A stretch of 64,000 bases of DNA, taken from a virus. Lineage: Duplodnaviria > Caudoviricetes. The stretch covers positions 4,183-68,182 of IMG/VR virus record IMGVR_UViG_3300043422_000086; one strand, written 5' to 3'. A program made the position numbers and the translations under genes. Shown here piece by piece: positions 4,301 to 28,267 of this stretch; within the stretch, counting starts at the first letter, position 1, and each line of letters opens with the position of its first letter. Below the pieces are notes generated by a model. The model did not search any database. It was not told where the DNA came from and was given only the letters and a program-made list of their open reading frames with translations.

Positions 4301-4524
4301 ACAGGTGTTTTACCTAAATCAATATTAGGATCGATGATACCTTGATCTCCGTGACCTAGAATTTCATAATTTTTAATAATCTCACCGGTTAAGGCTAAAT
4401 TATAATTCATTTCTTCATGAGTCAATGCTCTACCTAATAATTCCTTAGATAATTGAATATATGAACCATTAGCACCTCTGTGCAATCCATGTGGGAATGT
4501 ATATTCGCTAATTTTTTTAGACAT
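1369..4524 (-). CDS. Collagen-like (G-X-Y: GTS/GSS/GAQ) tail fibre with C-terminal peptidase S74 intramolecular chaperone
   Basis: Long GXY repeats in two blocks around a globular insert; C-terminal SDNRLKENV...GFIAQD...VDYARL...AIQEL. Confidence 0.85.
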
Positions 4525-5603: not shown

Positions 5604-5936
5604 TTATTTATCTTGTCCTTCGGTAGAGTGACCGTAGTGTGCTAAGTATTCAGCTGGCGACATGCCATGTAAAGCAGCTTGTGCTAATAAAATATCTGGA
5701 TATGCTCCGTTTGGTTGTACACCAGTTGCAGTTTGTGACCAAGTTCCGTATTGCAAAACAGGATCTTGTTGTGTAAGTGGTATAATGCTTCCTTCAGACT
5801 CAGCGCCTGTACTTGTAGTTGGTACTTTACCAGCGCCTTGTACAGTTCCTACAACAATATTTGCCGCGGCAGATGGATTGAAAGTAGTTTGATACTCAGC
5901 TATAAAGTCTTCTAAGTTTTTAACGTGTGTTTTCAT
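5604..5936 (-). CDS. Putative internal head protein with CTS-like leader (MKTHVKNLEDFIAE)
   Basis: Leader ends FIAE like T4 IPIII CTS; late box at 5940-5948. Confidence 0.65.
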   Translation of the reverse strand: MKTHVKNLEDFIAEYQTTFNPSAAANIVVGTVQGAGKVPTTSTGAESEGSIIPLTQQDPVLQYGTWSQTATGVQPNGAYPDILLAQAALHGMSPAEYLAHYGHSTEGQDK

Positions 5937-5939
5937 ACT

Positions 5940-5948
5940 TTATATATC
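5940..5948 (-). promoter_or_regulatory. Late-type box (class L) GATATATAA
   Basis: Just upstream of CTS-leader gene. Confidence 0.55.
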
Positions 5949-5951
5949 TGA

Positions 5952-6500
5952 TTAAAGTCCTTTAAATTCTGGAAAACTTTTAGTACTTTGATTGTCTCTT
6001 TCAGTATAAATCTTATAAGCTTTCTTTTTATCAGAAGCACTTAATTTATCATATAAAGCTACAATGTTTTTCTCACTAGCAACACCTGTTTTCCAAACAT
6101 CATGTGAGTCAGAATAGTTATAATAAGTGTCGTGTGATTTCCAAGCCAATTCCCATTGTTCTAATGGACTCAAAGACTTTTTAATTAATTCAGTTCTAAT
6201 TTCCTGTTGAGATTTCTTTTTCTTGTTTAAATACAATTCCCAGTTACCTCTCATCGAACCTATTTTAAAAGCATGTAAAATATCTCCAGTTGATAATTTA
6301 ATTTCAAACTTAATACCTTTGGCATCATCAGATTGGTCTGCAATGGACTTAATCCATTTATCATCAAATGTCGGTGTAGCGTGTTTAATTGTAACTTTTA
6401 CATCATCTACAAGATCTTCTGGTGAACCCCAATTACCTTTCTTTTGATAATCATTATATGTTTGATAAGCTTCAAACGTCATTACTATTTTATTGCTCAT
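5952..6500 (-). CDS. Hypothetical protein
   Basis: ORF directly downstream of early-type promoter repeat. Confidence 0.65.
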   Translation of the reverse strand: MSNKIVMTFEAYQTYNDYQKKGNWGSPEDLVDDVKVTIKHATPTFDDKWIKSIADQSDDAKGIKFEIKLSTGDILHAFKIGSMRGNWELYLNKKKKSQQEIRTELIKKSLSPLEQWELAWKSHDTYYNYSDSHDVWKTGVASEKNIVALYDKLSASDKKKAYKIYTERDNQSTKSFPEFKGL

Positions 6501-6509
6501 AAGTCTTTG

Positions 6510-6564
6510 TTTTAATTATAGTGTAAATATACTAAAAAAAGCCCAAACTAAAAAATTTGGGCTT
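6510..6564 (-). promoter_or_regulatory. Early-type promoter repeat (class E) with stem-loop
   Basis: aagcccaaa..tttgggctt-T6-TATATTTAC-N-TAATTAAAA. Confidence 0.7.
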
Positions 6565-6572
6565 AATTATTT

Positions 6573-7118
6573 TTATCCTAAATATAATTCTTCGAAGTGT
6601 AAAAGATCTAGCCTCTTATCGATGTCGATTAATTGTAAAGCATTTAATAAATCTGAGTATTCTGCTACAGATTCTGTTTGAATGCCTCTGAATTCTTGTA
6701 AGAAATCAAACGTAGCTAAGTCACTTGTAAATAAAACTTGAGAATCAGCTATGTATTTTTTATATAAATCCAATTCTAATTCATAAGCTCTTTCTATGAT
6801 TTCTGGTAAATTACCAAAGTCAACGTGTGTTTCAACTTTAGGAATAACTGGTAAAACATTCCAGTCTACAAGATATTTTTGTAATTTTTGAGCGTGTGCT
6901 AATTCATTAGCAGTTTCAGTTGTGAAAAAAGCAGCAGCTTTTAAATAACCAGCACCTGCACACCAATTGGCTGCAGAATTATAAAAATAATGAGCAGTAT
7001 ACTCATCACCAATTCTTTGTGTTAACAATTTAACTGATTCTCCAAATAAAACTACAGGCTGTCTTAAACCGTTGTTTAAATTTGGCGCAGCTGCATTTTC
7101 ATTAATTGATCTAATCAT
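6573..7118 (-). CDS. ftn: Ferritin (non-haem) family protein
   Basis: IGDEYTAHYFY...ELAHAQKL...AYELE...FLQEF...Q.E ferroxidase-type pattern. Confidence 0.85.
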   Translation of the reverse strand: MIRSINENAAAPNLNNGLRQPVVLFGESVKLLTQRIGDEYTAHYFYNSAANWCAGAGYLKAAAFFTTETANELAHAQKLQKYLVDWNVLPVIPKVETHVDFGNLPEIIERAYELELDLYKKYIADSQVLFTSDLATFDFLQEFRGIQTESVAEYSDLLNALQLIDIDKRLDLLHFEELYLG

Positions 7119-7129
7119 GATATTTTAGT

Positions 7130-7882
7130 TTATTTTAAATTTTTAATAACAGCATCGTCTGCTTTAATTTCACCCATTGGTATTTGTAAATTTTTAACCA
7201 ACATTTGTACGAAATCAACAGCTGCATCTTTTTCTTTAAATGAGAATACATCAGTTGATGGTCTTTTACCATATTTAATAAACATGTCATTGAAAAGTGC
7301 AATAGCATCTTTAGCGTGTCTATTGCTTACTGTAACATCAAAAGCCTCATTAACTAATGATTCTTTAACACCTACTTCTTTTAAAGATTTAACTTGTTTA
7401 CCTTTTTGTTCACCATTACCTGAAGCAAACCATAATAAACCGTCTTTGATTAATCTTTTATAAAGTTCAGCTTTAATAATTTCAAAATTGATAGTATCTG
7501 ATGAATTCTCCCAAGTTTCTTCTACGTAGTCTGGATCAATCCAACCAAATCCTGATTTAATGTTTTTAACCATTTCTTTGTAATCAGTTTCAAATTGTTT
7601 TACAGCAGCTTCATTAACTACAGATTCATAAGCAGTACCTTCAACATCTCCAGCTTTGTCAAATTTCTTAACAGATGAGCTAATACGTTGTAAATTTTTA
7701 ATGATACGATCAATTTCTTTTGGTGAAACATCATCACCTGCAGCCGCTCCACTATATAAAGATTGTATCGATTGGTTTACGACATATAATTCATTTCTAA
7801 TTATATCTTTAGGTAATCTGTAAAATGATTCTTGTATAGATTCTTCACCATTGAATTCTTCGAATAGTTTAATTTTCTTCAT
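7130..7882 (-). CDS. CTS-leader protein, multi-module with internal (V/L)xE sites
   Basis: MKKIKLFEEF leader; internal VVNE/AA and LVNE/AF. Confidence 0.7.
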   Translation of the reverse strand: MKKIKLFEEFNGEESIQESFYRLPKDIIRNELYVVNQSIQSLYSGAAAGDDVSPKEIDRIIKNLQRISSSVKKFDKAGDVEGTAYESVVNEAAVKQFETDYKEMVKNIKSGFGWIDPDYVEETWENSSDTINFEIIKAELYKRLIKDGLLWFASGNGEQKGKQVKSLKEVGVKESLVNEAFDVTVSNRHAKDAIALFNDMFIKYGKRPSTDVFSFKEKDAAVDFVQMLVKNLQIPMGEIKADDAVIKNLK

Positions 7883-7922
7883 GTTTTAGTAAATCTTTTT
7901 CTTTTATTTAAATAAATATAAA

Positions 7923-7931
7923 CTATATATC
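7923..7931 (-). promoter_or_regulatory. Late-type box (class L)
   Basis: GATATATAG upstream of 7882. Confidence 0.5.
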
Positions 7932-7933
7932 TC

Positions 7934-8503
7934 TTATTTGAATTGTTCTTTTAATTTGTACTTTTCGATAGTTGCTTTCAAAACTCGAATATAATTAGGA
8001 TCTTCAGCGTAACTAGCTGATAAATACTCAAAATATTCTTGTTCAGACTTGATAGAACTTAAATATCTTGACTGATAAAATGCATAATCATACACAGATT
8101 CTTTCCATGATTCATAAAATGCATGATTATTTTGAGTTCCATCCGCAGTCGTAACTCTTTGCTTAGCTTCTTTCATACCAAACAAATTATTATTCTCAAC
8201 AAAGATGTTTGATTTCCAGTGACCTGTCTCAACAATCGATTGAGCCATTGGAATCCAAGCAAATTTAATGTTCAATCCTTTCATCATAGTCACTAATTTT
8301 TGACTACTAAAGCTATCTGATTTTTTAATCAAGACTACTTTTTCATATTCTGTCAAGCCATTAATAGCTTTATCAATACCTAATCGGTAACTGTAAAATG
8401 AGGTTAAACTTATGGCTAAAGCGCCTAAAGCACCAGCTTTAATATATGATTTTAATTTTAAAGACTTGAAAACTAATTGATTTTTATCGTACTTATATAA
8501 CAT
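7934..8503 (-). CDS. Glucosaminidase (GH73-like) peptidoglycan hydrolase with N-terminal membrane anchor
   Basis: AQSIVETGHW...NNNLFGMK...YAEDPNY motifs. Confidence 0.8.
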   Translation of the reverse strand: MLYKYDKNQLVFKSLKLKSYIKAGALGALAISLTSFYSYRLGIDKAINGLTEYEKVVLIKKSDSFSSQKLVTMMKGLNIKFAWIPMAQSIVETGHWKSNIFVENNNLFGMKEAKQRVTTADGTQNNHAFYESWKESVYDYAFYQSRYLSSIKSEQEYFEYLSASYAEDPNYIRVLKATIEKYKLKEQFK

Positions 8504-8523
8504 AATTTAAGATTTCGTTAAAC

Positions 8524-8715
8524 TTATTTTATCATTTGCTGTGCAAATCTGGCTTCTTGTAGCCTTTTGATAAATTCTTTTTTCTCAGATGTATCTTCAG
8601 TCCATAGAGAAGATACTTTGAATTTTTTAGCCCACTTATTAAACTCTTTGGATTCTTGTGGTTGCTTTGCTTTTTTAATTAGACTCTTTTCCATTTTCTT
8701 CTGATTTAGATTCAA
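8524..8715 (-). CDS. Small basic hypothetical protein (start may be MEKS)
   Basis: ORF track. Confidence 0.5.
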   Translation of the reverse strand: MNLNQKKMEKSLIKKAKQPQESKEFNKWAKKFKVSSLWTEDTSEKKEFIKRLQEARFAQQMIK

Positions 8716-8863
8716 TTAATACATATCTGATTCCAGACTCGGTTACTTTTAAAGTAGCATCTTTTGAATTTATTATATCCAAGTGTTGTTTATGTGCAGT
8801 TGGATTTTCTTCTGATTTTTGAGCCATTGCCATTAAGGTTTGCTCCATGTAAATTTGTTTCAT
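8675..8863 (-). CDS. Small hypothetical protein
   Basis: ORF track, tightly packed. Confidence 0.5.
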   Translation of the reverse strand: MKQIYMEQTLMAMAQKSEENPTAHKQHLDIINSKDATLKVTESGIRYVLIESKSEENGKESN

Positions 8864-8864
8864 A

Positions 8865-9212
8865 TTAACAGTATTCTAAAGATTCTTCACCAATCATGTT
8901 CCACAATTCTAAATCATAACGACTATTTTTCTTGCAAGCTGCGCTACAAGCTCTTTTAAGTACTTCGTAAGTTTCGCTTTTAATTTCAGTAAAACCAAAA
9001 CCAGCAACCATAAAATATCTGCGATCATAGTTAATTACATCACCAACAGAAACTGAAGGTGCATTCTGCGGTTGAAACATATTCTGACCGTAGTGAAATA
9101 CTAAGTCTAATACGCTAAACACATCGCCTGTAATTTCTGAAGTAGGAACTTCTACGTTACGATATTGGCCATCGTTAAATCTGAATTGTTGAACTTGGAT
9201 GATTGTATTCAT
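8865..9212 (-). CDS. YodL-like domain protein
   Basis: PSVSVGDVI...YFMVAGFGF motif; early promoter upstream. Confidence 0.55.
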   Translation of the reverse strand: MNTIIQVQQFRFNDGQYRNVEVPTSEITGDVFSVLDLVFHYGQNMFQPQNAPSVSVGDVINYDRRYFMVAGFGFTEIKSETYEVLKRACSAACKKNSRYDLELWNMIGEESLEYC

Positions 9213-9222
9213 TTTGTTTATC

Positions 9223-9278
9223 TTTTAATTACATAGTAAATATACCACTAATTATTCAAATAAAAAAATTATTTAGCG
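9223..9278 (-). promoter_or_regulatory. Early-type promoter (class E)
   Basis: TATATTTAC..TAATTAAAA. Confidence 0.65.
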
Positions 9279-9318
9279 TTTATTTTTTAATTATTTTTCA
9301 ATTGGTTGATAACCAAGA

Positions 9319-11049
9319 CTAAACTGCTTTAATTCGACTCTTAATATCTTTAGGAATACATCCGGGTTTGCTAATTAAGCTTCTAAAACAAGCATCTAGC
9401 ACATAAGTTACAGCCCAATCTTCTTTACTTCTGACAGAACGCCCGACGCCCTGTAAAAAACTTACGCTAGTTTTCCAATCATACCAATCTGGCATGTATT
9501 GCATTTTAGCTTTAATATGAGGACTATTCAAAGATGGATATGGTACCTTAAAGAAGACTTGGAACCTACTTGTATCATCTTTTAAGTCTAACCCTTCTAA
9601 GATAGATGGTCCAATAAGTATTCCATCAGTTGATTTTTTAAACGTCTCTAATGCGCTTGCTTTTGATTTGGAGTCATCATAAGCTATTAATCTTGAGCTA
9701 ATTGCGCTGTTTTCTAATATTTTTTGTGTGAATTCATAAGAACCCGAGTGAATAACACCTCTTTGTCCAACATGCTTAGAAGCTATTTTGTCCATGATGG
9801 CTAAAACCTTGTCAAAGTTTTGATCCTTTTCTTTCATAGACATTTTATGACGGTTAACAAAAACAATTGGTGACTTTTCATAAGTAAAATCATTAGTCAA
9901 TCTAATAAACCTTGCATTTTCAATGCCCATAATTCTCATATAAGAAGCCGGATCACCAATAGTAGCACTCATAAAGACTTTAAATTCTGCCTTTGCATGT
10001 AAGTGCTTTCTAATCATCCATTGTTCTTCAATACATGTAAATTTAGCCTCTTCTCTGTTTTGATCTATAACCATTTTGTCTAAACCAACTTCAGCTATAA
10101 TGTCTATGTAATCATCAAATTTACAGTAAACATCTTTGATTCTATCAAGAGCTGTCATTGCATTTTGCCAATCTTTAGGCACTGCATTACTATTAAATCT
10201 TTTTTTGGCTGCAGTTTTAATCTCTTGATTCATAGACATATATTGACCTAGATATTGCTTTAAGTAACCCATGGCTTCAAAGATCTTTTTCTTGTCACGT
10301 TCATTCAACAACATTAAAACAACGCTATCTATTCTATTCTTGGTAACTTTAGGCTCTGAGAAACCCCATTTAACTAAGAATGAGTTAACCGTTTGAATTC
10401 TTGAAGAAACATCTGAATCAATACGTGGACTAAAATGATTTTGAACAATCTCATCTACTTTGTGAGCTTCATCAAAAAAGACAAAGTCTCTTTGTGCAAA
10501 TGGTGAGCCACCATCATCAGCTTTTTTATCTTCTACGTAATTTCTTTGTAACAACCAAAACGCATAGTTAAGTAAACAAACTCTGTGGTTAATTGCGCGT
10601 TGTCTATTTTGTAGATAATCACAGCTACCATAACAATCAAGTTTAGAAGCTTGCTCATAACCCATACCTTTTAAACGACAATCACCTAATGAAAATGGTA
10701 AATTATTAACAGAACATTCATAATTATCTGCACCTTTAACTGAAGGCCAATGTAAACCCAGTCTATAGAAATCTGATTCATATTGATCTTGTAATGATAA
10801 ATCACTCGTAATCAAATAACCTTGTTTGTCAAAACTTGATAAAACCAAACTTGAAGCCATGGCAATAATAGATTTACCGGTCCCTGTAGGTGCATCTATA
10901 ACAATAGTGGCTTTTGGATCTTCAAAGTATGTTTTACAAATAGCCGTGATAGTTTCTCTTTGGCCTGTACGAAATTCAAAGCCTTTGCCAAGCTTTTCTT
11001 CTTTTATAATCTGATCTAATTTCTCGTTGATTTCTTCTAGCACGTTCAC
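9319..11049 (-). CDS. DinG/Rad3-family SF2 DNA helicase
   Basis: DAPTGTGKS, DEAH, MSAT, EGLDL, KVPYP, QGVGRSVRS; Fe-S cysteines. Confidence 0.9.
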   Translation of the reverse strand: MNVLEEINEKLDQIIKEEKLGKGFEFRTGQRETITAICKTYFEDPKATIVIDAPTGTGKSIIAMASSLVLSSFDKQGYLITSDLSLQDQYESDFYRLGLHWPSVKGADNYECSVNNLPFSLGDCRLKGMGYEQASKLDCYGSCDYLQNRQRAINHRVCLLNYAFWLLQRNYVEDKKADDGGSPFAQRDFVFFDEAHKVDEIVQNHFSPRIDSDVSSRIQTVNSFLVKWGFSEPKVTKNRIDSVVLMLLNERDKKKIFEAMGYLKQYLGQYMSMNQEIKTAAKKRFNSNAVPKDWQNAMTALDRIKDVYCKFDDYIDIIAEVGLDKMVIDQNREEAKFTCIEEQWMIRKHLHAKAEFKVFMSATIGDPASYMRIMGIENARFIRLTNDFTYEKSPIVFVNRHKMSMKEKDQNFDKVLAIMDKIASKHVGQRGVIHSGSYEFTQKILENSAISSRLIAYDDSKSKASALETFKKSTDGILIGPSILEGLDLKDDTSRFQVFFKVPYPSLNSPHIKAKMQYMPDWYDWKTSVSFLQGVGRSVRSKEDWAVTYVLDACFRSLISKPGCIPKDIKSRIKAV

Positions 11050-11064
11050 ACATTTAAGTCTAAT

Positions 11065-11091
11065 TTATACGTGAATCTTGCGAAAAGTTTA
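11065..11091 (-). promoter_or_regulatory. Class M promoter (G/T)AAAC-N17-TATAA
   Basis: Upstream of helicase. Confidence 0.6.
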
Positions 11092-11100
11092 TTGCATAAA

Positions 11101-11125
11101 AAAAGGAACCAGTTAGATTCCTTTT
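11101..11125 (-). terminator. Intrinsic terminator
   Basis: aaaaggaa-N-ttcctttt hairpin with T-run. Confidence 0.5.
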
Positions 11126-11134
11126 GATTTCTTT

Positions 11135-11311
11135 TTAGGCCGGGCCACCAACTCCGAACCAAATCCAATCAGACTCTTCGTCGTCTTCGTTTAAAATAGA
11201 AATAAAATCGAATTGCTCGATAATAGCTTCTACGGTTTCAACAATTGGACCTTTTGTCTCTTTGGGCTCGATCTCAGAAGTGATGTCGACTTCTGGGATG
11301 AACTTTTCCAT
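11135..11311 (-). CDS. 58-aa acidic hypothetical protein (MEKFIPEV...WFGVGGPA)
   Basis: Manual translation; own promoter and terminator flank it. Confidence 0.55.
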   Translation of the reverse strand: MEKFIPEVDITSEIEPKETKGPIVETVEAIIEQFDFISILNEDDEESDWIWFGVGGPA

Positions 11312-11387
11312 AAAAGATTTAGATATTTTTTGTAGAGGATTAGAGGTTCTACTGTTTATATATTAATCTTTTTTAAAAAGTTTCAAA

Positions 11388-11981
11388 TTATTGTTGCGTT
11401 TCTTTGATTTTATCGTCAATAAAATCAGTTAAATCTTTTACAGAACCTCTAAAGGCTCTAATATCTACCATTCGTTGATCTTCACTTGGATTTCCAACGA
11501 AGGTATCTGAGTCTTTTGCTTCTAAAATTATATCATTATCAAATTTAATAGTTGGAGAAGGTGAGAATTGAGTTCCACCGTCTTGAGCTTCTAAACCATA
11601 AACATCTTTTAAAGTTTTAATAACTTTAGATTTATAAGACTTGTCTTTTAAATGAAAGTAAGTAACGCTGTCATTAGGTTGATCAAGTACGCCTTTAACA
11701 TATTGTGATAGCTCTTTTGCAATATACTCAGCCGCATCTCCTGCAATGTTTCCATTGTATTTAGATTCTTTAAGACTTAATTGTTTTTGCAATTCAGCCA
11801 TAAATGGTTTAATGTTATGGTCACCGTATTCATCTTTGATAATAGTTGCAACTGCAATTGCAAATTCCGTGTATGGAAGTGAATCATCTACTTTATCAAT
11901 GGCTTTTAACATTAAAGGCACTAATTTATCTGATTTAGCAGACTCATTAATAAATGAATTAAAATCTGTCATGTGTTTCAT
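11388..11981 (-). CDS. CTS-leader protein (MKHMTDFNSFINE)
   Basis: Leader motif; internal LKE/S, ILE/A. Confidence 0.7.
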   Translation of the reverse strand: MKHMTDFNSFINESAKSDKLVPLMLKAIDKVDDSLPYTEFAIAVATIIKDEYGDHNIKPFMAELQKQLSLKESKYNGNIAGDAAEYIAKELSQYVKGVLDQPNDSVTYFHLKDKSYKSKVIKTLKDVYGLEAQDGGTQFSPSPTIKFDNDIILEAKDSDTFVGNPSEDQRMVDIRAFRGSVKDLTDFIDDKIKETQQ

Positions 11982-12268
11982 TATTTCTTTTTAAGTTCTT
12001 TTCCAAATTCTGTTAAAGCGCCATTATCATCCATAGCACAAAAGTGTTCTCTAGAATTACCTTTAGTTAATTCAATGTGTAATCCAGGATTCATACCTCC
12101 AAGATCCTTTGGCGCCCATAATCTTGCAACTGTCCAAGTTCCAGATTCTGATTTTAAAGTTACTTTGTCCTGTGTTGAGATTCCAGTTTCTTCTGTAAAT
12201 TTTTTGGTTAATTTATCTCCAATTTGAGCTTCGTTAACGAATTCTTCGTATAGTTTTATGTGTTTCAT
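11981..12268 (-). CDS. CTS-leader protein (MKHIKLYEEFVNE)
   Basis: Leader motif. Confidence 0.7.
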   Translation of the reverse strand: MKHIKLYEEFVNEAQIGDKLTKKFTEETGISTQDKVTLKSESGTWTVARLWAPKDLGGMNPGLHIELTKGNSREHFCAMDDNGALTEFGKELKKK

Positions 12269-12276
12269 ATCTTATT

Positions 12277-13089
12277 TTAATTTTTTGGCCATAACATAAT
12301 AGTTCCTGGGTCATTCCAAGAAAAATACCAACCTGCTTTTTCTACAGCTGCAACAACATTTTTAAGCACTCCGTTTTGGTATTTTGCACCTTTATTGTAG
12401 TAATCAAATATTTTACCACCACTCATTGTTTCACCGTTGTCAGCTGCCATCCAAATACCTCCAGTTTCGCCATTGAATTTTTCTGATGGTGAAACATGTT
12501 TAATTTTGTATTTGTCTTCCATCATAATAGACATTGCACCTCTATCAAGTTCTTTAGCTTCATTAAGAGATTCTCCTAATGTTATATTGCTTTTTAATGT
12601 TTTTACAAAACACGAATCAATATTTCCAATTACGCTTGATGTATAATCATCAAGAATATCATAAAACACCTTTGCTTTCGTGAATGATACTTTAACTACA
12701 GATCCCCATCTTTCGTCATCACCTGGTGCAGTTATAAACGATACAGGTTCTCCAATTTCAAATTGTGCTGGAAAGTTTACTTCTTCGTTTACAATAGCTT
12801 CACCGATAGCTTCTTGCGAAATCATGGCCTGGATAATATCAGTTGAAATCCATCCAGCTGCTCTAAAAAAATCATGTGCTAGCTTAATTACTTTCTTTTC
12901 ATCACCGTTAGTAACTTCATTGTCTTTGCCATCTTCGTTATTAAGATTCCATTCTTCAACTTCGTCTTCAACAGCACGATTCACTTTAGAAGCAGATGTT
13001 ATCTTTGTAGATTTTTCATGATAATCTGCCCAATATTTAATGTTTATTGACTCGTTGATAAACTGTTCAAATAGTTTTACTTTTTTCAT
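12277..13089 (-). CDS. CTS-leader protein, three modules separated by IVNE/LNE sites
   Basis: MKKVKLFEQFINE; internal EAIVNE, GESLNE. Confidence 0.7.
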   Translation of the reverse strand: MKKVKLFEQFINESINIKYWADYHEKSTKITSASKVNRAVEDEVEEWNLNNEDGKDNEVTNGDEKKVIKLAHDFFRAAGWISTDIIQAMISQEAIGEAIVNEEVNFPAQFEIGEPVSFITAPGDDERWGSVVKVSFTKAKVFYDILDDYTSSVIGNIDSCFVKTLKSNITLGESLNEAKELDRGAMSIMMEDKYKIKHVSPSEKFNGETGGIWMAADNGETMSGGKIFDYYNKGAKYQNGVLKNVVAAVEKAGWYFSWNDPGTIMLWPKN

Positions 13090-13391
13090 TATGATATGTA
13101 TGCGTTTAGTTCGTATTTATCACCCATTCCATATATTGAAATTGCAAGGGCTTTCTTTTGTTCTTTACCATCTTTAAAAAGAGTGATAGTAAATCTGTTT
13201 GTAAAACCATCACCTGGTTTTTTAGGACCCATACCAATTTTAGTGGCAGTTTCTTCTTTGTCATATTCATATCCTTGCGATTCAGCATATTCTAATGCAG
13301 TCTCAACAGCTGATGTATAACTTCTGTGGTAAACTTGGTAACTTGATTTCTTTTCAGTTACAAATTGTTCGAATAATAAAGTATGTTTCAT
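13089..13391 (-). CDS. CTS-leader protein (MKHTLLFEQFVTE)
   Basis: Leader motif. Confidence 0.7.
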   Translation of the reverse strand: MKHTLLFEQFVTEKKSSYQVYHRSYTSAVETALEYAESQGYEYDKEETATKIGMGPKKPGDGFTNRFTITLFKDGKEQKKALAISIYGMGDKYELNAYIS

Positions 13392-13392
13392 A

Positions 13393-13815
13393 TTATTTAC
13401 CTAAGGCTTTTTTAACTTCTTTAACAAATTTAACTGCTCTATCAGCTGCATCTTTCATAGATTTTGCTGTAGCTTTTCTAAATTTGATTTTTAAACGAGT
13501 TTCATAAGATACTTGTTTTCCTGGCTCATATAAAGACTGTGTGAAAACTTCCATTTTACCATCTTTGTAAATTGCCATTCTAAAATAGTTAGAATTTTCT
13601 ACGTAACCATGAGACCACTCAGTCTTTGGTTCAAATGAAACCAAAAGCATGATTGTATCATTACCAAAAACACCTTTACTTAAAGAGATATAACCTGGAT
13701 TTTCTTTTTCTAAAGCATCTTTTAATATCGCAGATGCTTGTACAATATCTGTAGTTCCATCATCAAAGATTAAGGCTTCATTTACGTATTGTTCAAATAA
13801 TTTTACTTTTTGCAT
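13393..13815 (-). CDS. CTS-leader protein (MQKVKLFEQYVNE)
   Basis: Leader motif; late box at 13837-13845. Confidence 0.7.
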   Translation of the reverse strand: MQKVKLFEQYVNEALIFDDGTTDIVQASAILKDALEKENPGYISLSKGVFGNDTIMLLVSFEPKTEWSHGYVENSNYFRMAIYKDGKMEVFTQSLYEPGKQVSYETRLKIKFRKATAKSMKDAADRAVKFVKEVKKALGK

Positions 13816-13836
13816 GATTTAAGTTTATTTTATAGT

Positions 13837-13845
13837 CTATATATT
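13837..13845 (-). promoter_or_regulatory. Late-type box (class L)
   Basis: AATATATAG upstream of CTS-leader run. Confidence 0.5.
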
Positions 13846-14296
13846 ATTTTATTATTAAGTAATTTAAAACTTGTTCCCAGTTTTCAAAATTAGGTTGACC
13901 AAACTGAATCCATTGACCTTTGAATTCTGCTGCACCATTATTAGGTCTATCATCAATAAGGTAATCACCCATTAAAAGATCCTTTCTGTGAGAGAGTATA
14001 AGTCTTTTGTGTGCTAATTTACCCATGTATTTTTGAACCCAACGTCTTTTAGAACTCCAAGACTCTGCATTTGACCATGGCGCTGTGCTTAAAAAGTAAA
14101 CTTCATACTGTTCCATGAGTATTTTAACAGCGTCTAGAGCTCCTTTGATAGGCTCTGGATTCTCAAACAACTCTTTATCTACTGACGTTAATCTTCCTAA
14201 GTGTCTAACTGCATCTGGTCCGTGTCTTTCGATTGCGTGAGCTTCTAAATCAACCATTACTCCGTCTAAATCGATATAAACTATTTTCTTGTTCAT
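13844..14296 (-). CDS. 5'(3')-deoxyribonucleotidase (NT5C, HAD family)
   Basis: YIDLDGV, FLSTAPW, KDLLMGDYLIDDR; start moved to MNKK downstream of early promoter. Confidence 0.85.
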   Translation of the reverse strand: MNKKIVYIDLDGVMVDLEAHAIERHGPDAVRHLGRLTSVDKELFENPEPIKGALDAVKILMEQYEVYFLSTAPWSNAESWSSKRRWVQKYMGKLAHKRLILSHRKDLLMGDYLIDDRPNNGAAEFKGQWIQFGQPNFENWEQVLNYLIIK

Positions 14297-14303
14297 CTTC
14301 TTG

Positions 14304-14360
14304 TTTTTAATTATAATGTAAATATACAAAAAAAAGCCCAAATAAAAAAATATTTGAGCG
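14304..14360 (-). promoter_or_regulatory. Early-type promoter (class E)
   Basis: Same motif. Confidence 0.7.
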
Positions 14361-14384
14361 TTTATTTTAAAAATTTAATGATTT

Positions 14385-15104
14385 TTATGAATTGGCCTTA
14401 ATCCATTCTTTACCAATACGGTTTTGTAACGGTTTATTAAGTAATTTGTTAATAGCGCCTGCCATTTTATCAAAGTGTTCAGTCCCAGAGACTGAATTGT
14501 CAACAATGATTAAGTTATCTCCACCAAAAATAGTTTGAAAGTGACCTATATTGTTTTGTACATTCTGCCAAATTTCTTTAACCATTTCTTCAGGTAAAGA
14601 TCTCGATCTAGCTGCATTTCTTTGTAATGCAACTTCTAATGAAGTATTAACAAAAATCATATAACAATCATAACCATAAGCTTCAATTGCTCCTTTTTTA
14701 GCTGCAATTTTCTTATAATCATCTCCTGTACCATCGATAATCATACCTAGTCTACCTTGTAAGTATAATTTCTGTTTTAAATCTGTAACTCTTTTAGCTT
14801 TACCTCTTGGTGATTCTTCGCCAGAAGTCAATTCTGCAAATTTCTTAGGGTCCATAGTAGCTAAATCCTTTGGATCAACTCCCATATTCTTTAATTGCAA
14901 TTCAAAGGCTTGATCTGAATTAATAACTTTAAGACCGTTTCTATATGAGATGCTTTGAATACCATTCTCAGGTACACCAAACAATTCTTCAGCTGCTCTT
15001 GATTTACCAGAACCTGGTCCTCCAGCCATGAAAAATGCTTTTAAGATATTTTTATCGTGCACGCCTTCATTAATAAACTCTTCAAATAATTTAACTAGCT
15101 TCAT
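14385..15104 (-). CDS. P-loop kinase (zeta-toxin/AAA_33-like) with CTS-like leader
   Basis: MKLVKLFEEFINE; AGGPGSGKS, INSD, IIDGTG, ALQRNAARSR. Confidence 0.8.
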   Translation of the reverse strand: MKLVKLFEEFINEGVHDKNILKAFFMAGGPGSGKSRAAEELFGVPENGIQSISYRNGLKVINSDQAFELQLKNMGVDPKDLATMDPKKFAELTSGEESPRGKAKRVTDLKQKLYLQGRLGMIIDGTGDDYKKIAAKKGAIEAYGYDCYMIFVNTSLEVALQRNAARSRSLPEEMVKEIWQNVQNNIGHFQTIFGGDNLIIVDNSVSGTEHFDKMAGAINKLLNKPLQNRIGKEWIKANS

Positions 15105-15658
15105 TTTAATTTACCGTATATTCTTTTTGTAATTCTTTTACCAGCTTTTGATAAAAATCTTGTGTAATAGCCATTTTCAGTGAATTCTGGCTTTTTATCT
15201 AATCCAACAACATCTTCAATCATTTCTTTGTCTGTAATAACGGGAGCTTTGGCTTGACTTAATAACTCTTCCATTCTTAAAGAAGCCTCTATAAACCAAC
15301 CTTTAGTATTAACCAACTGCAAAAGCTTTTTAACAATATCAGATTTAGCTTCTTTTTTACCATTAGTACCTAATAAAGCTATTTTATTGCCCCATTTAGT
15401 AGGCTTGTATATGATAAAAGCATCTGCTTGATGATCTGAGTCTACATCTTTTAAGGCAGTTGCTTTGTATTTTGCTTGCATTTCTTCCCAATCATCAGCT
15501 GATAAATCCATACCAGCATCTAAATATGTTTTGGTGTACATAGCCCAAATTGATTCCATGCCTTCTTTGTCAATCTTCTTAAGATCCATGTCGACCCACT
15601 TATTAGAAGGTATTTCGAATTCATTTAAGAATTGTTCAAATAATTTAACTTTCTTCAT
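15101..15658 (-). CDS. CTS-leader protein
   Basis: MKKVKLFEQFLNE. Confidence 0.7.
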   Translation of the reverse strand: MKKVKLFEQFLNEFEIPSNKWVDMDLKKIDKEGMESIWAMYTKTYLDAGMDLSADDWEEMQAKYKATALKDVDSDHQADAFIIYKPTKWGNKIALLGTNGKKEAKSDIVKKLLQLVNTKGWFIEASLRMEELLSQAKAPVITDKEMIEDVVGLDKKPEFTENGYYTRFLSKAGKRITKRIYGKLK

Positions 15659-15659
15659 A

Positions 15660-16118
15660 TTATTGAGGTAATCTTACCATTGTATTTCGTGTTTCGCTTT
15701 TATCGGTGTTCTTTACAAAACCATGGTCTTTGTAAAACTTTTCTAATCTAGATGTTGAAGAGGCTCCGAAATCTTTAGAAGGTGTTAAGTATATTTTTAA
15801 ACCTTTAGAATCAGCATAAGCATTAATTTGTTTCATGATTTCTGAACCAATACCTTCACCTCTTTTATCTTTTGGAATAATAATTCTTGACAACTCTAAA
15901 AATTTACCATTGTCATATAGATCTAAGTCAATACCGTATTTGTCTTCTAAATCTCTTAAAACAAAAGCTTCTCCTAAAATAGTTGTATTATCGTGAAAAC
16001 ATTTATGACATGTATATAAATCGTGGCCACCATCTTCTAACTTCCAAGTCCATCCGCAATTATCACACTTGATTTTATTGCCATCTACAAATTCTTCATA
16101 TAACTTTACGTATTGCAT
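15660..16118 (-). CDS. Zn-ribbon + GNAT acetyltransferase with CTS-like leader
   Basis: MQYVKLYEEFV; CDNC/CHKC; RGEGIGS and FYKDHGF GNAT motifs. Confidence 0.8.
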   Translation of the reverse strand: MQYVKLYEEFVDGNKIKCDNCGWTWKLEDGGHDLYTCHKCFHDNTTILGEAFVLRDLEDKYGIDLDLYDNGKFLELSRIIIPKDKRGEGIGSEIMKQINAYADSKGLKIYLTPSKDFGASSTSRLEKFYKDHGFVKNTDKSETRNTMVRLPQ

Positions 16119-16119
16119 C

Positions 16120-16680
16120 TTACTTTAAATTTTTATCGTGGCCACCGTCTCTAACTTCTTTAGCTAAATCTTTATCAGCTCCACCCCAAGTTCCTTCTTG
16201 CTTAGTTAAAAATGAATTTACACGAGCATAACCCCATTGTTGTTGATTTGCACCAGGTCTATGACCTGTTTTCCAAGCTGCTAAGCCTCTTCTCATTACT
16301 GCTCTAAGAATTCCAATTGGAACTCCTGTTTCTTCAGATTTAGTTTTTAAACCTGTTTCTATAGCGTCATCGTCAATTGCAGATCTATCAGTTGATTGTT
16401 CTTCTTCAAAAACTAAAGACTCGTTCTTTTCTTCTTTATCGCCATACAATTCATGATATGACTTAGTGTGTTTAGAAGTTTTTACTTGTCCCTTTTCTTT
16501 GGCTTCTTTATCGCCAGGTAATTCTTTATAAGCTGCTTCGTCATCATCTGACATTTCAGCTTGTTTTTTCATTTGATCCTTTTTATCTTCTTCAGTTTCA
16601 TCACTTAAACCAGTCATATATGGATCTGGTCCAGGTTTAGCTTCATTTAAGAAATCTTCGTATAGTTTTACGTGTTGCAT
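16120..16680 (-). CDS. CTS-leader protein with conserved viral domain RGLAAWKTGHRPGA..QQWGYARVNSF (DUF5824-like)
   Basis: Leader MQHVKLYEDFLNE; recalled motif. Confidence 0.65.
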   Translation of the reverse strand: MQHVKLYEDFLNEAKPGPDPYMTGLSDETEEDKKDQMKKQAEMSDDDEAAYKELPGDKEAKEKGQVKTSKHTKSYHELYGDKEEKNESLVFEEEQSTDRSAIDDDAIETGLKTKSEETGVPIGILRAVMRRGLAAWKTGHRPGANQQQWGYARVNSFLTKQEGTWGGADKDLAKEVRDGGHDKNLK

Positions 16681-16689
16681 TGCTTTTAT

Positions 16690-16938
16690 TTATTTTTCAA
16701 CTTCACCGTCATTACCATCCATTGCATCATGCACAGCATTTAAGTTTTCTAAAGAAACTGTTAATTGAGAATACATCCAAGATTCTAATTGTTCACCTTT
16801 AGTCATTCTGTCCTTGATCATGTTTGCATAGTCTGCAATTCTTTCAAGTTGACCTAAGGTCATTTCGTTTAATTCAGCTAGAGTATCTCTACCTTCAGCT
16901 TCATTTATAAATTCATTAAAATCTGTTACGTGTTTCAT
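16690..16938 (-). CDS. CTS-leader protein (MKHVTDFNEFINE)
   Basis: Leader motif. Confidence 0.7.
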   Translation of the reverse strand: MKHVTDFNEFINEAEGRDTLAELNEMTLGQLERIADYANMIKDRMTKGEQLESWMYSQLTVSLENLNAVHDAMDGNDGEVEK

Positions 16939-17477
16939 TATAAATTGATCTTTGTTTTTGTACCATCTGGTTGGGAATAGACTATATATTTGGGTTTAAG
17001 CTCCTTTTTAGTATCGTCTAACATTTCAGTGTATTTCTTACCTAAACCTGGTTTTAAATAAGCAACTGTCATGTGTGGATGATAGTCTGGGTAATCTGTT
17101 GTGTGTGGTAATTTACTAAGTTCAGTATTACAATCATGTAAACTTGGACCTTCTACGTCATATTTCAACACATCAAACTTTTCATTTTCAAAAAGAGATG
17201 CATTTGTAATCGTGCAGTTACCAAAAACAAAGTTTTTAGCTATGTTTTCAATCACTTCAAGTTTTATATCATCATGTAAGCCATAAAGTAATGTGCAATG
17301 CGGTTCAGTTTCTAGGCCAAATGTAGCATCTTTAGGATCTACAAAGACATCTTCTTCATCTATTTGTTTGTGCAAGTTTTCCATTTCAGGAAAATCAAAG
17401 TACAACATAGCACAACCATAATCATACGTCTTTTTCTTTTCAGTCACGAATTCTTCAAATAATTTTACGTGTTTCAT
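16938..17477 (-). CDS. acb1: 2H phosphoesterase, Acb1/T4 gp57B-like anti-CBASS nuclease, with CTS-like leader
   Basis: Two HxT motifs (PHCTLLYG, PHMTVAY), YGCAML N-terminus. Confidence 0.75.
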   Translation of the reverse strand: MKHVKLFEEFVTEKKKTYDYGCAMLYFDFPEMENLHKQIDEEDVFVDPKDATFGLETEPHCTLLYGLHDDIKLEVIENIAKNFVFGNCTITNASLFENEKFDVLKYDVEGPSLHDCNTELSKLPHTTDYPDYHPHMTVAYLKPGLGKKYTEMLDDTKKELKPKYIVYSQPDGTKTKINL

Positions 17478-17489
17478 CTTTTAAATTTA

Positions 17490-17789
17490 TTATGCTCCGA
17501 AACCTAGGTCAAGAGTATCATCTTTTTCATCATCGTAATCTCCGGTTAAATCAACATCTTCTAAATCTATACCTTCAACTTTAATCTTCGGTCTAAAATG
17601 ACCATCTCCGTCAAAATATGCTTTAAAGCTTCTACCAGAACCTACAGCACCACACCAATGCATGAAAGCAAACATTTTTAAAAAATCATCTGCTGTTGAT
17701 TGGTCAATATTAGAAATAGTTACATTTAAGGTAACTGTTCCATCTTCTGCTTCTGTTAAGAAGTTTTCAAATAGTTTAATGTGTTTCAT
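17490..17789 (-). CDS. CTS-leader protein (MKHIKLFENFLTE)
   Basis: Leader motif. Confidence 0.7.
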   Translation of the reverse strand: MKHIKLFENFLTEAEDGTVTLNVTISNIDQSTADDFLKMFAFMHWCGAVGSGRSFKAYFDGDGHFRPKIKVEGIDLEDVDLTGDYDDEKDDTLDLGFGA

Positions 17790-18553
17790 TATTTCTTGTT
17801 TTCTTTTTTATCGTAATATTCCCAAACCTCATCTAATTGTTTAGGATCTGCTAACCAGCTTTCCCACCAGCCTCCTCCTTCTTCTTCAACTAAAGAACCA
17901 TCTTCTAACCTACGATATTCTTTTTCATGAACTGTAATTTTAAAAGTCTTTGGTGCAAATGGAAATGATTTAATATAATGCATGCAACCGATTTGTTCTT
18001 CACTACCTTCGCTTATACTAACATGACCTGTAAATCCATAATCTTTTCCTTCAGGAATCCATACAATTGCATCTAAGTAATATGGTTTACCCTCTTTACC
18101 TTCTTTGAAAACTGAACTAAGTCTTTTATTTTGAAAAGTTCCAGTGCCTTCTTCAGCGTCTTCATATACTGAACAGTCTGACCATTCTTCGTCTGTTCCC
18201 ATAATGCCTTCACCAAGTGGTTCATGAGCTAATAGTTTTTGCAATACTTGAACGATAACTGCACTCGTAAAAGGAGCTGAGCCACCGCTTTGACCAGAAT
18301 CAGCAAATTTCTTTACCAAGGCCATTACTTCAGGCACAAACTCTTTAATAATTGGAGTCCCACCTTCACCTTTGCCTTCAGCGTTTTTCATCATAAGATC
18401 CAATTCAAATTGAGCCTTATCGACTAAGCCCTCATTGATAGAATCAACTTGAATCATTCTCACACCTTCATGTAAGAATTTAATTAACTGAAATTTAACT
18501 TTGTTTTCGATTGATTCTGCTAAGAATTCTTCGAATAATTTAACTGTTTTCAT
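17789..18553 (-). CDS. CTS-leader protein with conserved phage domain (GQSGGSA...QNKRLSSVFKE)
   Basis: Start moved to MKTVKLFEEFLAE; internal SINE/G. Confidence 0.7.
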   Translation of the reverse strand: MKTVKLFEEFLAESIENKVKFQLIKFLHEGVRMIQVDSINEGLVDKAQFELDLMMKNAEGKGEGGTPIIKEFVPEVMALVKKFADSGQSGGSAPFTSAVIVQVLQKLLAHEPLGEGIMGTDEEWSDCSVYEDAEEGTGTFQNKRLSSVFKEGKEGKPYYLDAIVWIPEGKDYGFTGHVSISEGSEEQIGCMHYIKSFPFAPKTFKITVHEKEYRRLEDGSLVEEEGGGWWESWLADPKQLDEVWEYYDKKENKK

Positions 18554-27248: not shown

Positions 27249-27325
27249 TGGAGCGAAAGACCGGGTTCGAACCGGCGACCTTCTCGTTGGCAACGAGACG
27301 CTCTGACCAGCTGAGCTACTTTCGC
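27249..27325 (-). tRNA. trnG: tRNA-Gly(GCC), CCA encoded
   Basis: Full cloverleaf gcgaaag/ctttcgc; loop ttGCCaa. Confidence 0.95.
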
Positions 27326-27330
27326 ATTTT

Positions 27331-27399
27331 GGGTTGGATCAGAGGCCTTCTGCCAACCGGGACCTTGTCGTTGACTTTCGTCAGAGCGGACCAAGACAC
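27331..27399 (-). ncRNA. Candidate two-hairpin RNA upstream of tRNA-Gly
   Basis: cttggtccg..tgac-gaaa-gtca..cgacaag and ggttgg..cagaaggcctctg..ccaacc. Confidence 0.35.
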
Positions 27400-27414
27400 T
27401 TTTTAATAATAAGC

Positions 27415-27549
27415 AGGATGGGCTTTTATACGTGCTCTACCAACTGAGCTACTCTGAACGTGCCACTTAAGGCTGTGTTCAAAGGCCGGATTCGAACCGA
27501 CGACCACGAGGTTAACAGCCTAGTTTTTATGGATTGCTGGAACCATCCT
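27415..27549 (-). ncRNA. CAGCAA-motif RNA A: circularly permuted tRNA body (Y-RNA/YrlA-like) with Asn-type anticodon loop
   Basis: Terminal stem aggatgg/ccatcct; order anticodon loop-T arm-closed acceptor-D arm. Confidence 0.7.
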
Positions 27550-27565
27550 TGTATAATTAATAAAC

Positions 27566-27622
27566 GGAATACGCATTGGTTTGAGTAAAAGTCAAAGTTT
27601 GTAAATTTGCTGTAGGTATTCC
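27566..27622 (-). ncRNA. CAGCAA-motif RNA B with isolated Lys-like anticodon stem-loop
   Basis: ggaatac/gtattcc terminal stem; TACAGCAA; tttga-cTTTTac-tcaaa. Confidence 0.55.
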
Positions 27623-27632
27623 AATAATTTTC

Positions 27633-27772
27633 AGGTTTCTATTGTTTTGACCAGCGCGTCTACCAATTTCGCCACACTCCAATTTGATTTAAATTTCGTT
27701 GGAGAGGTAGGACTCGAACCTACACGTCTTTCGACACCGGTTTCTTATAGAATTAATTGCTGTAAGAAACCT
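27633..27772 (-). ncRNA. CAGCAA-motif RNA C: circularly permuted tRNA-Leu-like body
   Basis: aggtttct/agaaacct stem; variable arm gtcgaaagac, T arm, closed acceptor, then Leu-type D loop. Confidence 0.7.
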
Positions 27773-27781
27773 TTAATGTTT

Positions 27782-27946
27782 TTATTTTACAGTCGCTGTG
27801 TCTACTGTAACTGTGTCTACTTGTACAGAATCAACTTGAACTGTTGTAGAATCAGCTGTTTCAGTTTTTGAAGTTGCTCCATTACCACAAGAAGCGATTG
27901 AGATTGTTGCTACGATAGCTGCGATTGCGAAAAATACTTTTTTCAT
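27782..27946 (-). CDS. 54-aa lipoprotein with D-S/T-x repeats
   Basis: MKKVFFAIAAIVATISIAS-C lipobox; DST, DSV, DTV, DTA. Confidence 0.7.
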   Translation of the reverse strand: MKKVFFAIAAIVATISIASCGNGATSKTETADSTTVQVDSVQVDTVTVDTATVK

Positions 27947-27984
27947 TTTGATTTTTGTTTTAGTTTTAAATTTAATTGTAAAGA

Positions 27985-28011
27985 TTATACCTTTAAAATT
28001 GGCTTTGTTTC
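27985..28011 (-). promoter_or_regulatory. Class M promoter
   Basis: Upstream of lipoprotein and CAGCAA RNAs. Confidence 0.6.
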
Positions 28012-28016
28012 AAAAA

Positions 28017-28193
28017 TTAAGCCTCTTTGTTTTTCTCAGAAACATCAACTCTTACTGCTTGAGCTAAAGCTTTAATGTCTTGCATTGCTTTACGAACTCT
28101 GGTTCCAGCTGCTTTGTTTCCTTTTTCGAAAAATTTAGTTGCGTCTTCTTTGATTGAGTTAAGAATCTCTTCGATCTGATTTAAATTTTGCAT
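28017..28193 (-). CDS. Histone H1-like protein (Hc1 family), 58 aa
   Basis: Manual translation: EDATKFFEKGNKAAGTRVRKAMQDIKALAQAVR. Confidence 0.8.
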   Translation of the reverse strand: MQNLNQIEEILNSIKEDATKFFEKGNKAAGTRVRKAMQDIKALAQAVRVDVSEKNKEA

Positions 28194-28217
28194 GTTTTTT
28201 AATTTTTTAATTAATAA

Positions 28218-28244
28218 TTATACTGGTAAAATAAAAAAGGTTTC
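28218..28244 (-). promoter_or_regulatory. Class M promoter
   Basis: Upstream of Hc1 gene. Confidence 0.6.
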
Positions 28245-28266
28245 ATCGTTAAATGAAACCTTTTTA
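28233..28266 (-). terminator. Inverted repeat/terminator after tRNA-Ala, overlapping a promoter -35
   Basis: aaaaaaggtttcat-N-atgaaacctttttt. Confidence 0.55.
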
Positions 28267-28267
28267 G

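Follow-up and report, generated by a model that had tools for sequence, protein, structure and literature searches.

A T4-like N-terminal leader shared by unrelated proteins of an uncultured phage, and its probable role as a capsid targeting sequence

The closest described counterparts of the system reported here are the internal proteins of the T-even phages. In the accessible text of PMC5694885, all T4 internal head proteins are stated to enter the prohead core via a capsid targeting sequence (CTS), and gp21 to cleave propeptides off on the C-terminal side of Glu, with ITE-6 and LTE-619 of Alt as examples. As far as the available sections of PMC3012670 and PMC12373910 describe them, the leader is the sole common part of the T-even internal proteins, which are injected inhibitors of type IV restriction enzymes, and the latter source counts "at least 10" internal-protein types among these phages. 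Here we describe a comparable leader in a 64,000-nucleotide stretch of DNA from an uncultured virus (Caudoviricetes; positions 4,183 to 68,182 of IMG/VR record IMGVR_UViG_3300043422_000086), called the window below, in which 14 open reading frames (ORFs) of the minus strand begin with the 13-residue consensus M-K-H-[IV]-K-L-F-E-x-F-[IVL]-N-E. We consider it probable that this leader is a T4-type CTS, cut after Glu13 by a protease of family S77 and loading about 20 proteins for delivery together with the DNA.

The leader had been noticed in an original prediction made from the sequence alone, which listed 15 ORFs as sharing it, and all 15 were found on the minus strand where they had been placed. 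Twelve of the window leaders, taken by coordinate, were used to build a position-specific matrix, which was then scanned over the entire 68,182-base contig holding the window. Scores of 21.9 or more were reached at 15 contig sites, all on the minus strand and none internal, and because every one of them lies within 19 codons of the preceding stop, the leader is N-terminal throughout; in codon-shuffled controls (n = 20) the top score was 13.3, with zero or one site per shuffle scoring 6 or above. Fourteen of these strong sites lie in the window, with starts at 7882, 11981, 12268, 13089, 13391, 13815, 15104, 15658, 16118, 16680, 16938, 17477, 17789 and 18553, and the fifteenth lies on the same contig, 3.4 kb beyond the left end of the window. 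The remaining ORF of the list (5604..5936, minus strand, 110 AA) is doubtful: one residue is inserted in its putative leader, and the score of 13.5 does not stand out from the best shuffle, which makes it a possible, divergent member at most, and its ending in F-I-A-E, which had been offered as support, is not evidence on its own. The two "TDFN" variants of the leader were as described, with starts at 11981 and 16938.

The bodies that follow the leader are unrelated, as had been claimed; when the first 14 residues were removed from the 15 proteins, no pair matched (best non-self blastp E = 0.008). Within the leader, synonymous codons differ between genes (TTC/TTT, TTA/CTA and GAA/GAG, for example) while the residues are fixed, and no conserved DNA was seen upstream of the leader ATG among the window leader genes. 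Together, the synonymous variation and the unconserved upstream DNA indicate that it is the peptide, rather than any RNA or DNA element, that is under selection.

The peptide resembles the T4 CTS, although the statistical match is weak (see below). In the T4 record, IPII and IPIII start with M-K-T-Y-Q-E-F-I-A-E-A, while in IPI the shared part is M-K-T-F-x-E-F and I-T-E-A stands at residues 17-20; the window leader corresponds to this pattern with three extra residues after position 3. Scored against leader positions 7-13, the 7-mers of IPII and IPIII rank third to fourth of the 69,391 in 54 kb of T4. A terminal [ILV]-x-E, the type of motif at which T4 propeptides are cut, is present at the sequence level in 12 of the 14 strong window leaders.

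The occurrence of the leader elsewhere was surveyed with a degenerate DNA pattern, which matched at least 119 stretches of IMG/VR containing at least 239 ORFs that score 20 or higher for the leader. Among the matches listed, 232 ORFs of 60 AA or longer, pooled with the 15 window ORFs, fell into at least 128 body clusters, 84 of them singletons. With one representative taken per cluster, information content was 3.7 bits at Glu13 and dropped to 1.2 bits at position 14 and 0.5 at position 15; again among the matches listed, 112 of 128 representatives had [ILVM]-x-E at positions 11-13, and 70 of 128 had A, S or G at position 14. In at least one ORF of each locus, the search pattern preset positions 1, 2, 4-8, 10, 13 and part of 11. 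Positions 3, 9, 12 and 14 onwards were left free, and neither the conservation of His3 and Asn12 nor the abrupt boundary after Glu13 is therefore an artefact of the search. When 125 cluster representatives were compared with Pfam, only 18 families were matched, with one member each, including Phage_lysozyme, CHAP, methyltransferases, a cytidylyltransferase-like domain, PAP2 and AAA_5. A scan of about 596 Gb of prokaryote genomes, by comparison, gave only 15 stretches that match the leader DNA pattern. Eleven of these lay in a conserved protein of Ruminococcus and other Clostridia and were rejected as leaders, being internal segments of that protein; one lay in another long frame, one had no scoring site, one was the head of a 36-AA ORF in an archaeal metagenome-assembled genome (MAG), and one was a 254-kb contig of a Bacteroidetes MAG with three N-terminal leaders. 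The leader is therefore nearly restricted to viral sequence. That last contig (CAIWBA010000291.1; 254,203 bases, uncultured Bacteroidetes) carries its three leader ORFs within 8 kb and is similar in length to the complete leader-bearing genome described next; it probably represents a jumbo phage that was binned together with its host, in which case it would point to a host in the Bacteroidota.

The contig that holds the window is an IMG/VR viral sequence, a fragment from an uncultured jumbo phage, and the window is its larger part; the contig has a G+C content of about 32%, carries nearly all of its genes on the minus strand and was estimated by CheckV to be about 35% complete. A second leader-bearing IMG/VR contig (G001; 256,444 bases, with terminal repeats and rated 100% complete) is collinear with it over G001:176,979-247,146, with long blocks 84-97% identical, and on account of this close, collinear relationship and its completeness it can stand in as the complete genome. 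No near-identical DNA to the window was found in the collection of cultured phages. The Rad3-type helicase was nearest to that of LR756500.1, a 462-kb uncultured phage (42% identity), and was about 31% like those of jumbo phages of Bacteroidota hosts, namely Chryseobacterium phage MA9V-2, PAU and Tenacibaculum phages pT24 and PTm1; the host range of the window phage is probably in the Bacteroidota as well.

The G001 head module is T4-type. On one strand it encodes a Portal_T4 protein (8.5e-68), a 130-AA ORF, an S77 protease, a Gp23 major capsid protein (MCP; 3.8e-43), a T4-type large terminase and a gp15-like protein, and the protease is 604 AA long with an N-terminal Peptidase_S77 domain (6.9e-12) and a match to the head maturation proteases of phrog_207 (8.5e-42). 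An S77 protease was found in four of five large leader-bearing contigs, and Gp23 in 19 of 30 further leader-bearing IMG/VR contigs, which are fragments of 8-88% completeness, or in 12 of 14 when only those at least 45% complete are counted. The leader reaches into the head module itself. The gap between the portal and protease genes, which is the position of T4 genes 67 and 68, holds a homologous small acidic protein of 112-149 AA with a leader-like N-terminus in 11 of 14 fetched head modules (12 of 15 with G001; in the module L171 the called ORF extends upstream of the leader-like start), and two other modules have a canonical leader ORF between the protease and the capsid gene. In G001, a canonical leader ORF of 155 AA also lies between the small and large terminase genes (40,511-40,978).

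In 13 of 14 loci the MCP opens with the tetrapeptide [LM]-[IL]-N-E, of the same type as the leader end, and A, S or Q comes next. A reading of this N-terminal [LM]-I-N-E as the single maturation site was withdrawn, since [ILVM]-x-E occurs five times within residues 1-44 of the G001 MCP, which in this resembles the multiply cut propeptide of T4 gp23, and since the mature N-terminus in PAU lies near residue 65. A more distant member, with an MCP that does not start in [LM]-I-N-E, has two small ORFs upstream of the protease (G020:74300-83000) that begin with M-I-[KN]-N-F-[NK]-Q-F-L-N-E, which may be a further, shorter variant of the leader.

Several more distant relatives have leaders of their own. 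The DNA pattern, which finds 11 sites in the window contig, found none in PAU, MA9V-2, LR756500.1, PTm1 or pT24 (0/5), and the leader profile recovered 14 weaker variants, in LR756500.1 only and 13 residues long. We scanned for N-terminal 12-mers common to ORFs with dissimilar bodies, using residues 22-33 as a control. This unbiased scan recovered a single group of 21 ORFs in G001, which served as positive control, and revealed 19 ORFs starting M-K-T-[LI]-x-x-L-[YF]-E in PAU and six in MA9V-2 with a 10-residue leader that ends [IV]-N-E-[AS] and is intermediate in form to the T4 CTS. In T4 its largest group was three homing endonucleases, a false-positive type, and for residues 22-33, the control, groups of three or more were absent from every scanned genome. 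The motif scan that the original prediction had proposed found 15 strong sites on the contig, and the leader variants in relatives are lineage-specific. Genes for S77 and Gp23 are present in all five distant relatives. Fourteen of the tagged ORFs of PAU (19 in all) lie at 100-121 kb around the portal, protease and capsid gene, and the depositors of the RefSeq record labelled the leader proteins gp142 and gp154 "internal capsid protein" and gp152 "scaffolding". The mature PAU capsid protein comprises 520 of 585 residues by N-terminal sequencing (accessible text of PMC5646251), and we placed the cut at or beside L-M-E(64), which is in keeping with the T4-type rule. In MA9V-2, the genes follow in the order portal, 82-AA tagged ORF, prohead protease and capsid gene.

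Two promoter-like motifs, both enriched upstream of G001 genes, bear on the timing of expression. ATATATAR occurs 60 times on the coding strand of G001 against four on the other strand, and stands upstream of the portal, protease, capsid, gp15-like, tail-sheath (phrog_34521, 1.9e-128), tail-fibre and lysozyme-like genes. The motif GTATATTTA occurs 25 times on the coding strand against nine on the other, at a fixed 31-34 nt before small or metabolic genes that include RNA ligase, phosphoribosyl pyrophosphate (PRPP) synthetase and nucleotidase, and is a candidate early or middle promoter of this phage group. Late-type boxes had been claimed before the runs of leader genes in the window, and ATATATAR does precede those starting at 16938 (16982..16989, 51 nt upstream of the ATG and within the preceding ORF), 13815 (13837..13844, 29 nt upstream, heading the run from 13815 to 11388), 7882 (7923..7930, 48 nt upstream) and 5936 (5940..5947, 11 nt upstream of the doubtful ORF 5604-5936), in each case on the minus strand. 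In the window, GTATATTTA lies at 14319..14327 on the minus strand, 31 nt upstream of the start of a nucleotidase, and at 9237-9245 and 6524-6532 before leaderless ORFs starting at 9212 and 6500. That nucleotidase, a leaderless NT5C-type deoxyribonucleotidase (13844..14341, minus strand, probable start 14296; Pfam NT5C 9.3e-15), sits inside the leader cluster. Leaders on early metabolic genes would have spoken against packaging, and no gene headed by GTATATTTA and no metabolic gene bears one. A relaxed search for the late motif, with one mismatch allowed, gave 282 matches against 264 ± 17 expected and was uninformative, the matches being at chance level.

Among the bodies of the window, all encoded on the minus strand, Pfam agreed with the Acb1-like, GNAT and P-loop kinase assignments of the original prediction, the first of these being borderline, and added Tad3 and DUF5824, so that five bodies are named in all. 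The Tad3-like protein (17789..18553, 254 AA from the ATG at 18553, leader score 41.3) matches PF25185 with 71.8 bits against a cut-off of 27 (E = 5.2e-20), profile positions 7-110 of 119 aligning with residues 47-168, and carries a C-terminal extension. Tad3 is an inhibitor of type I Thoeris that binds ThsB and blocks signal synthesis, according to the available text of PMC13728456. An anti-defence role of the Tad3-like protein is well founded, by homology only. The next body (17490..17789, 99 AA, score 40.0) has no assigned function and matches phrog_10928 (function unknown, 1.3e-8). The ORF at 16938..17477 (179 AA, score 46.9) reaches 27.4 bits for Acb1 against a cut-off of 27 (borderline, 3e-6) and 30.5 against 27 for 2_5_RNA_ligase2 (4.4e-7). 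The catalytic motifs of 2H phosphoesterases are two H-x-[ST]-x, and this protein has two H-x-T motifs; a safe name for it is "2H phosphoesterase, possibly Acb1-like", and its homology makes an anti-defence role plausible. In the T4 record, ipI adjoins 57B at 73,591-74,410, where 57B is annotated "RNA ligase" and is, we presume, the gene published as Acb1; in the window, the 2H/Acb1-like body itself bears the leader.

The DUF5824 body (Pfam 2.6e-18) is encoded at 16120..16680 (186 AA, score 42.1), the GNAT body (Acetyltransf_7, 2.6e-7), whose leader lacks Glu13, at 15660..16118 (152 AA, score 21.9), and the P-loop kinase body (AAA_33 3.6e-10, Zeta_toxin 1.6e-8) at 14385..15104 (239 AA, score 42.8). 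The kinase body matches an internal segment of phrog_12810 (788 positions) and the GNAT body segment 2698-2782 of phrog_10691 (3,925 positions), both families of unknown function; these two domains may occur elsewhere inside giant multidomain phage proteins. Bodies that remain unassigned are those at 16690..16938 ("TDFN" variant, 82 AA, score 42.4, no Pfam or PHROG match), 15101..15658 (185 AA, score 44.0, belonging to a 12-member body cluster of IMG/VR leader proteins), 13393..13815 (140 AA, score 41.2), 13089..13391 (100 AA, score 39.8), 12277..13089 (270 AA, score 44.5), 11981..12268 (95 AA, score 44.0), 11388..11981 ("TDFN" variant, 197 AA, score 37.1) and 7130..7882 (250 AA, score 29.7, with a leader ending N-G-E). 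A search of ten unassigned bodies against PHROG left eight without any PHROG. We hypothesize that the unassigned window bodies are anti-defence proteins.

Comparison of the window with G001 at 193.2-198.7 kb revealed fusions, replacements and an insertion in the leader cluster, with junctions at or just after the leader-coding segments. By blastp against the G001 proteins, the ORF at 12277-13089 combines two successive leader genes of G001, residues 1-108 of the first being followed by residues 8-182 of the second, with a remnant of [IV]-N-E near residue 100. Residues 67-197 of the ORF at 11388-11981 match a G001 leader protein with a different N-terminal part, and both this ORF and that at 16690-16938 differ from their G001 counterparts in the segment between leader and body. 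The GNAT ORF has a 36-AA Cys-rich insert after its Glu13-less leader, and the G001 orthologue is without it. Such turnover is expected of a modular, fast-evolving repertoire.

Other features of the window include 20 tRNA genes, all on the minus strand and in two clusters (27249-28340 and 57523-63329), with a GIY-YIG-like ORF among them (58385-59029, assigned by eye only). Two long ORFs, 1369-4524 and 54295-56016, consist mostly of collagen-like G-x-x repeats, have conserved C-terminal ends and are probably tail fibres; repeats related to them recur at several sites of G001 by blastn.

The claim that the leader is a capsid-targeting tag gains support from the T4-type head genes, the likeness to the T4 CTS, the boundary at Glu13 and the leader-bearing protein of the head module. 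The leader variants of relatives, the near-restriction of the leader to viral sequence, the upstream motif that four window runs share with structural genes, and the lysozyme and CHAP bodies among the cargo point the same way. From these data we infer late expression, packaging, cleavage and injection of the tagged proteins, as well as anti-defence activity. The cargo genes would be transcribed late, together with the virion genes; the amphipathic leader would carry each protein into the core of the assembling prohead, where the S77 (gp21-type) protease would cut after Glu13 of [ILV]-N-E and remove it, and the mature proteins would remain in the DNA-filled head. At the next infection they would enter the cell with the DNA, ahead of any phage gene expression, and some of them, such as the Tad3-like ThsB inhibitor, the Acb1/2H-like phosphodiesterase, the GNAT protein and the P-loop kinase, would act on host defences.

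Several observations weigh against this interpretation. The window-leader profile, run against the six frames of T4, had the N-terminus of ipIII as its sole match, and that match was weak (E = 0.06, 12.5 bits). Two window leaders are without the cleavage motif (that starting at 7882 ends N-G-E and that at 16118 ends V-D-G), and the continuation [KR]-L-N-E, followed by A, S or N, is found in only 7 of the 19 PAU leaders. The PAU record states no basis for its "internal capsid protein" labels, and no cargo protein belongs to a PHROG family with a virion-protein annotation. The evidence for head genes comes from the close relative G001, the head module lying outside the 68-kb fragment to which the window belongs. 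As to timing, the label "late" for ATATATAR is itself derived from the kinds of gene that it precedes, and no exact motif stands before the run that starts at 18553, for which a late-type box had also been claimed. In G001, leader genes with a motif within 100 nt upstream divide 8 late to 0 early against 41 to 20 for non-leader genes, which is not significant alone (Fisher p = 0.094). A conserved 150-AA ORF near the head module was considered as a late sigma factor like T4 gp55 and is not claimed as such, having no Pfam and no T4 match. The number of cargo species would also be 20-48 per genome, the higher figure coming from a 482-kb relative, which is far above T4.

An alternative is that the leader does load the prohead and that the tagged proteins are core, scaffold or DNA-packing components, degraded or expelled like T4 gp22, gp67 and gp68, with no injected arsenal and with the enzyme-like bodies acting in the producing cell or in the head. 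The most conserved leader protein is indeed the small acidic protein in the gp67/gp68 position of the head module, the annotated scaffolding protein of PAU bears the leader, and most bodies are without a recognisable enzyme domain, as the 18 singly matched Pfam families among 125 representatives indicate. We nonetheless think this unlikely, because the Tad3 (5e-20), 2H/Acb1, GNAT, kinase, lysozyme and CHAP bodies, homologous to proteins that act against defences in the cytoplasm or on the host, have no obvious role in the head, because rapid turnover of the cluster between genomes 84-97% identical over their aligned blocks better suits an arms race than a structural repertoire, and because the CTS-bearing internal proteins of T4 are injected and inhibit restriction, as described in the accessible part of PMC12373910.

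It is also unlikely, in our view, that the leader is unrelated to the capsid and serves instead in efficient translation start of late messages, as a degradation or regulation tag, in binding a common host or phage partner or in localisation within the infected cell. Such a role would be compatible with the absence of any shared leader from the unbiased scan of PTm1 and pT24, despite their having the same head type, a result that also counts against the CTS interpretation and shows that the leader is not obligatory for such heads. On the other hand, the synonymous variation and unconserved upstream DNA speak against an RNA or translation element, and chance would have to account alike for the [ILV]-x-E boundary at Glu13, the likeness to the T4 CTS, the leaders in the head module and the co-occurrence with T4-type heads. 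That the leader-coding DNA is a recombination cassette that shuffles accessory genes, the peptide being incidental, we regard as very improbable: junctions between the window and G001 clusters do lie at or beside leaders, one gene being two G001 genes joined at the second leader, but synonymous sites vary where residues are fixed, and conservation of the peptide extends over at least 119 loci and at least 128 body clusters, stopping sharply at Glu13. Recombination at the leaders is better viewed as a by-product that aids modular exchange.

If the leader is a CTS, as we think probable, the counter-defence pre-loading would be far larger in scale than in T4 and would reach signalling-based immunity. 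To our knowledge, the injected anti-defence proteins known so far are few, comprising T4 Ip1-3, P1 Dar and a handful of others, and inhibitors of Thoeris and of the cyclic-oligonucleotide-based anti-phage signalling system (CBASS) are generally regarded as expressed after entry; pre-loaded inhibitors of this kind would disarm Thoeris or CBASS before the first phage transcript. We tentatively suggest, as a possibility, that T4-type jumbo phages use a lineage-specific, cleavable "loading code" matched to their own core and protease, of which T4, MA9V-2, LR756500.1, PAU and the window phage would show variants, and with it pre-load dozens of interchangeable effectors, Thoeris and CBASS inhibitors included. 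The leader would then be a search key for more than 100 uncharacterised families of injected counter-defence proteins in metagenomes, most of the candidates being without a known family, and a portable tag with which chosen proteins could be loaded into such capsids. Since cultured relatives with leader variants of their own exist (PAU and MA9V-2), the idea is directly testable.

The leader as a text string was not found in the literature, and searches for CTS-type leaders, which did not cover supplements, turned up nothing beyond the T-even, phiKZ-like and P1 phages; in the jumbo-phage review PMC7824862 the terms "leader", "targeting sequence" and "internal protein" do not occur. Incorporation of the P1 Dar proteins proceeds by an ordered pathway of protein-protein assembly and not through a common cleavable leader. 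They resemble the proteins described here in being anti-restriction head proteins that are built in at morphogenesis and delivered with the DNA, according to the available text of PMC12810830 and PMC9024508. Polyvalent, MuF and portal-fused effectors also offer a parallel, as their effector domains, among them ADP-ribosyltransferases (ARTs), 2H and Nudix, are predicted in the accessible text of PMC9503650 to be packaged and injected early against immunity, and the GNAT and kinase bodies of the window match internal segments of very long PHROG families. Those effectors, however, are covalently fused to a head protein or joined in one giant polypeptide, whereas the proteins here are encoded by separate small genes with a short tag whose removal is predicted. 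The ejection or inner-body proteins of phiKZ and SPN3US are similar in that dozens of internal proteins are delivered, in that an S80 protease, kin to S77, cuts after Glu, and in that paralogues can share identical propeptides, but their motif is [A/S/G]-x-E, their propeptides are long and heterogeneous and their head genes are only distantly T4-like; the accessible text of PMC5694885, from which this comparison is drawn, describes no single short leader common to some 20 unrelated proteins.

The T-even CTS and the proteins IPI-IPIII remain the nearest match. In both systems a short N-terminal leader stands on unrelated proteins and ends in [ILV]-x-E followed by a small residue, homologues of gp20, gp21 and gp23 are encoded by the phage (G001 in our case), and the loci vary between close relatives. 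The leader described here differs in having 13 residues with a fixed Asn12 against 10 residues in T4, and in the number of tagged genes, which is 14-15 in the window, about 21 in G001 and up to 48 in the 482-kb relative against three in T4. The host range of the window phage, probably in the Bacteroidota, is different from that of the T-even phages, and the bodies, as known here from sequence alone, include enzymes and homologues of inhibitors of signalling immunity (Tad3 and Acb1/2H) and not only restriction inhibitors. Systems of this kind are known from the T-even phages; what appear to be new, within the literature searched, are the leader variant and its broad distribution among uncultured T4-type jumbo phages, together with the size of the repertoire and the nature of some of its cargo.

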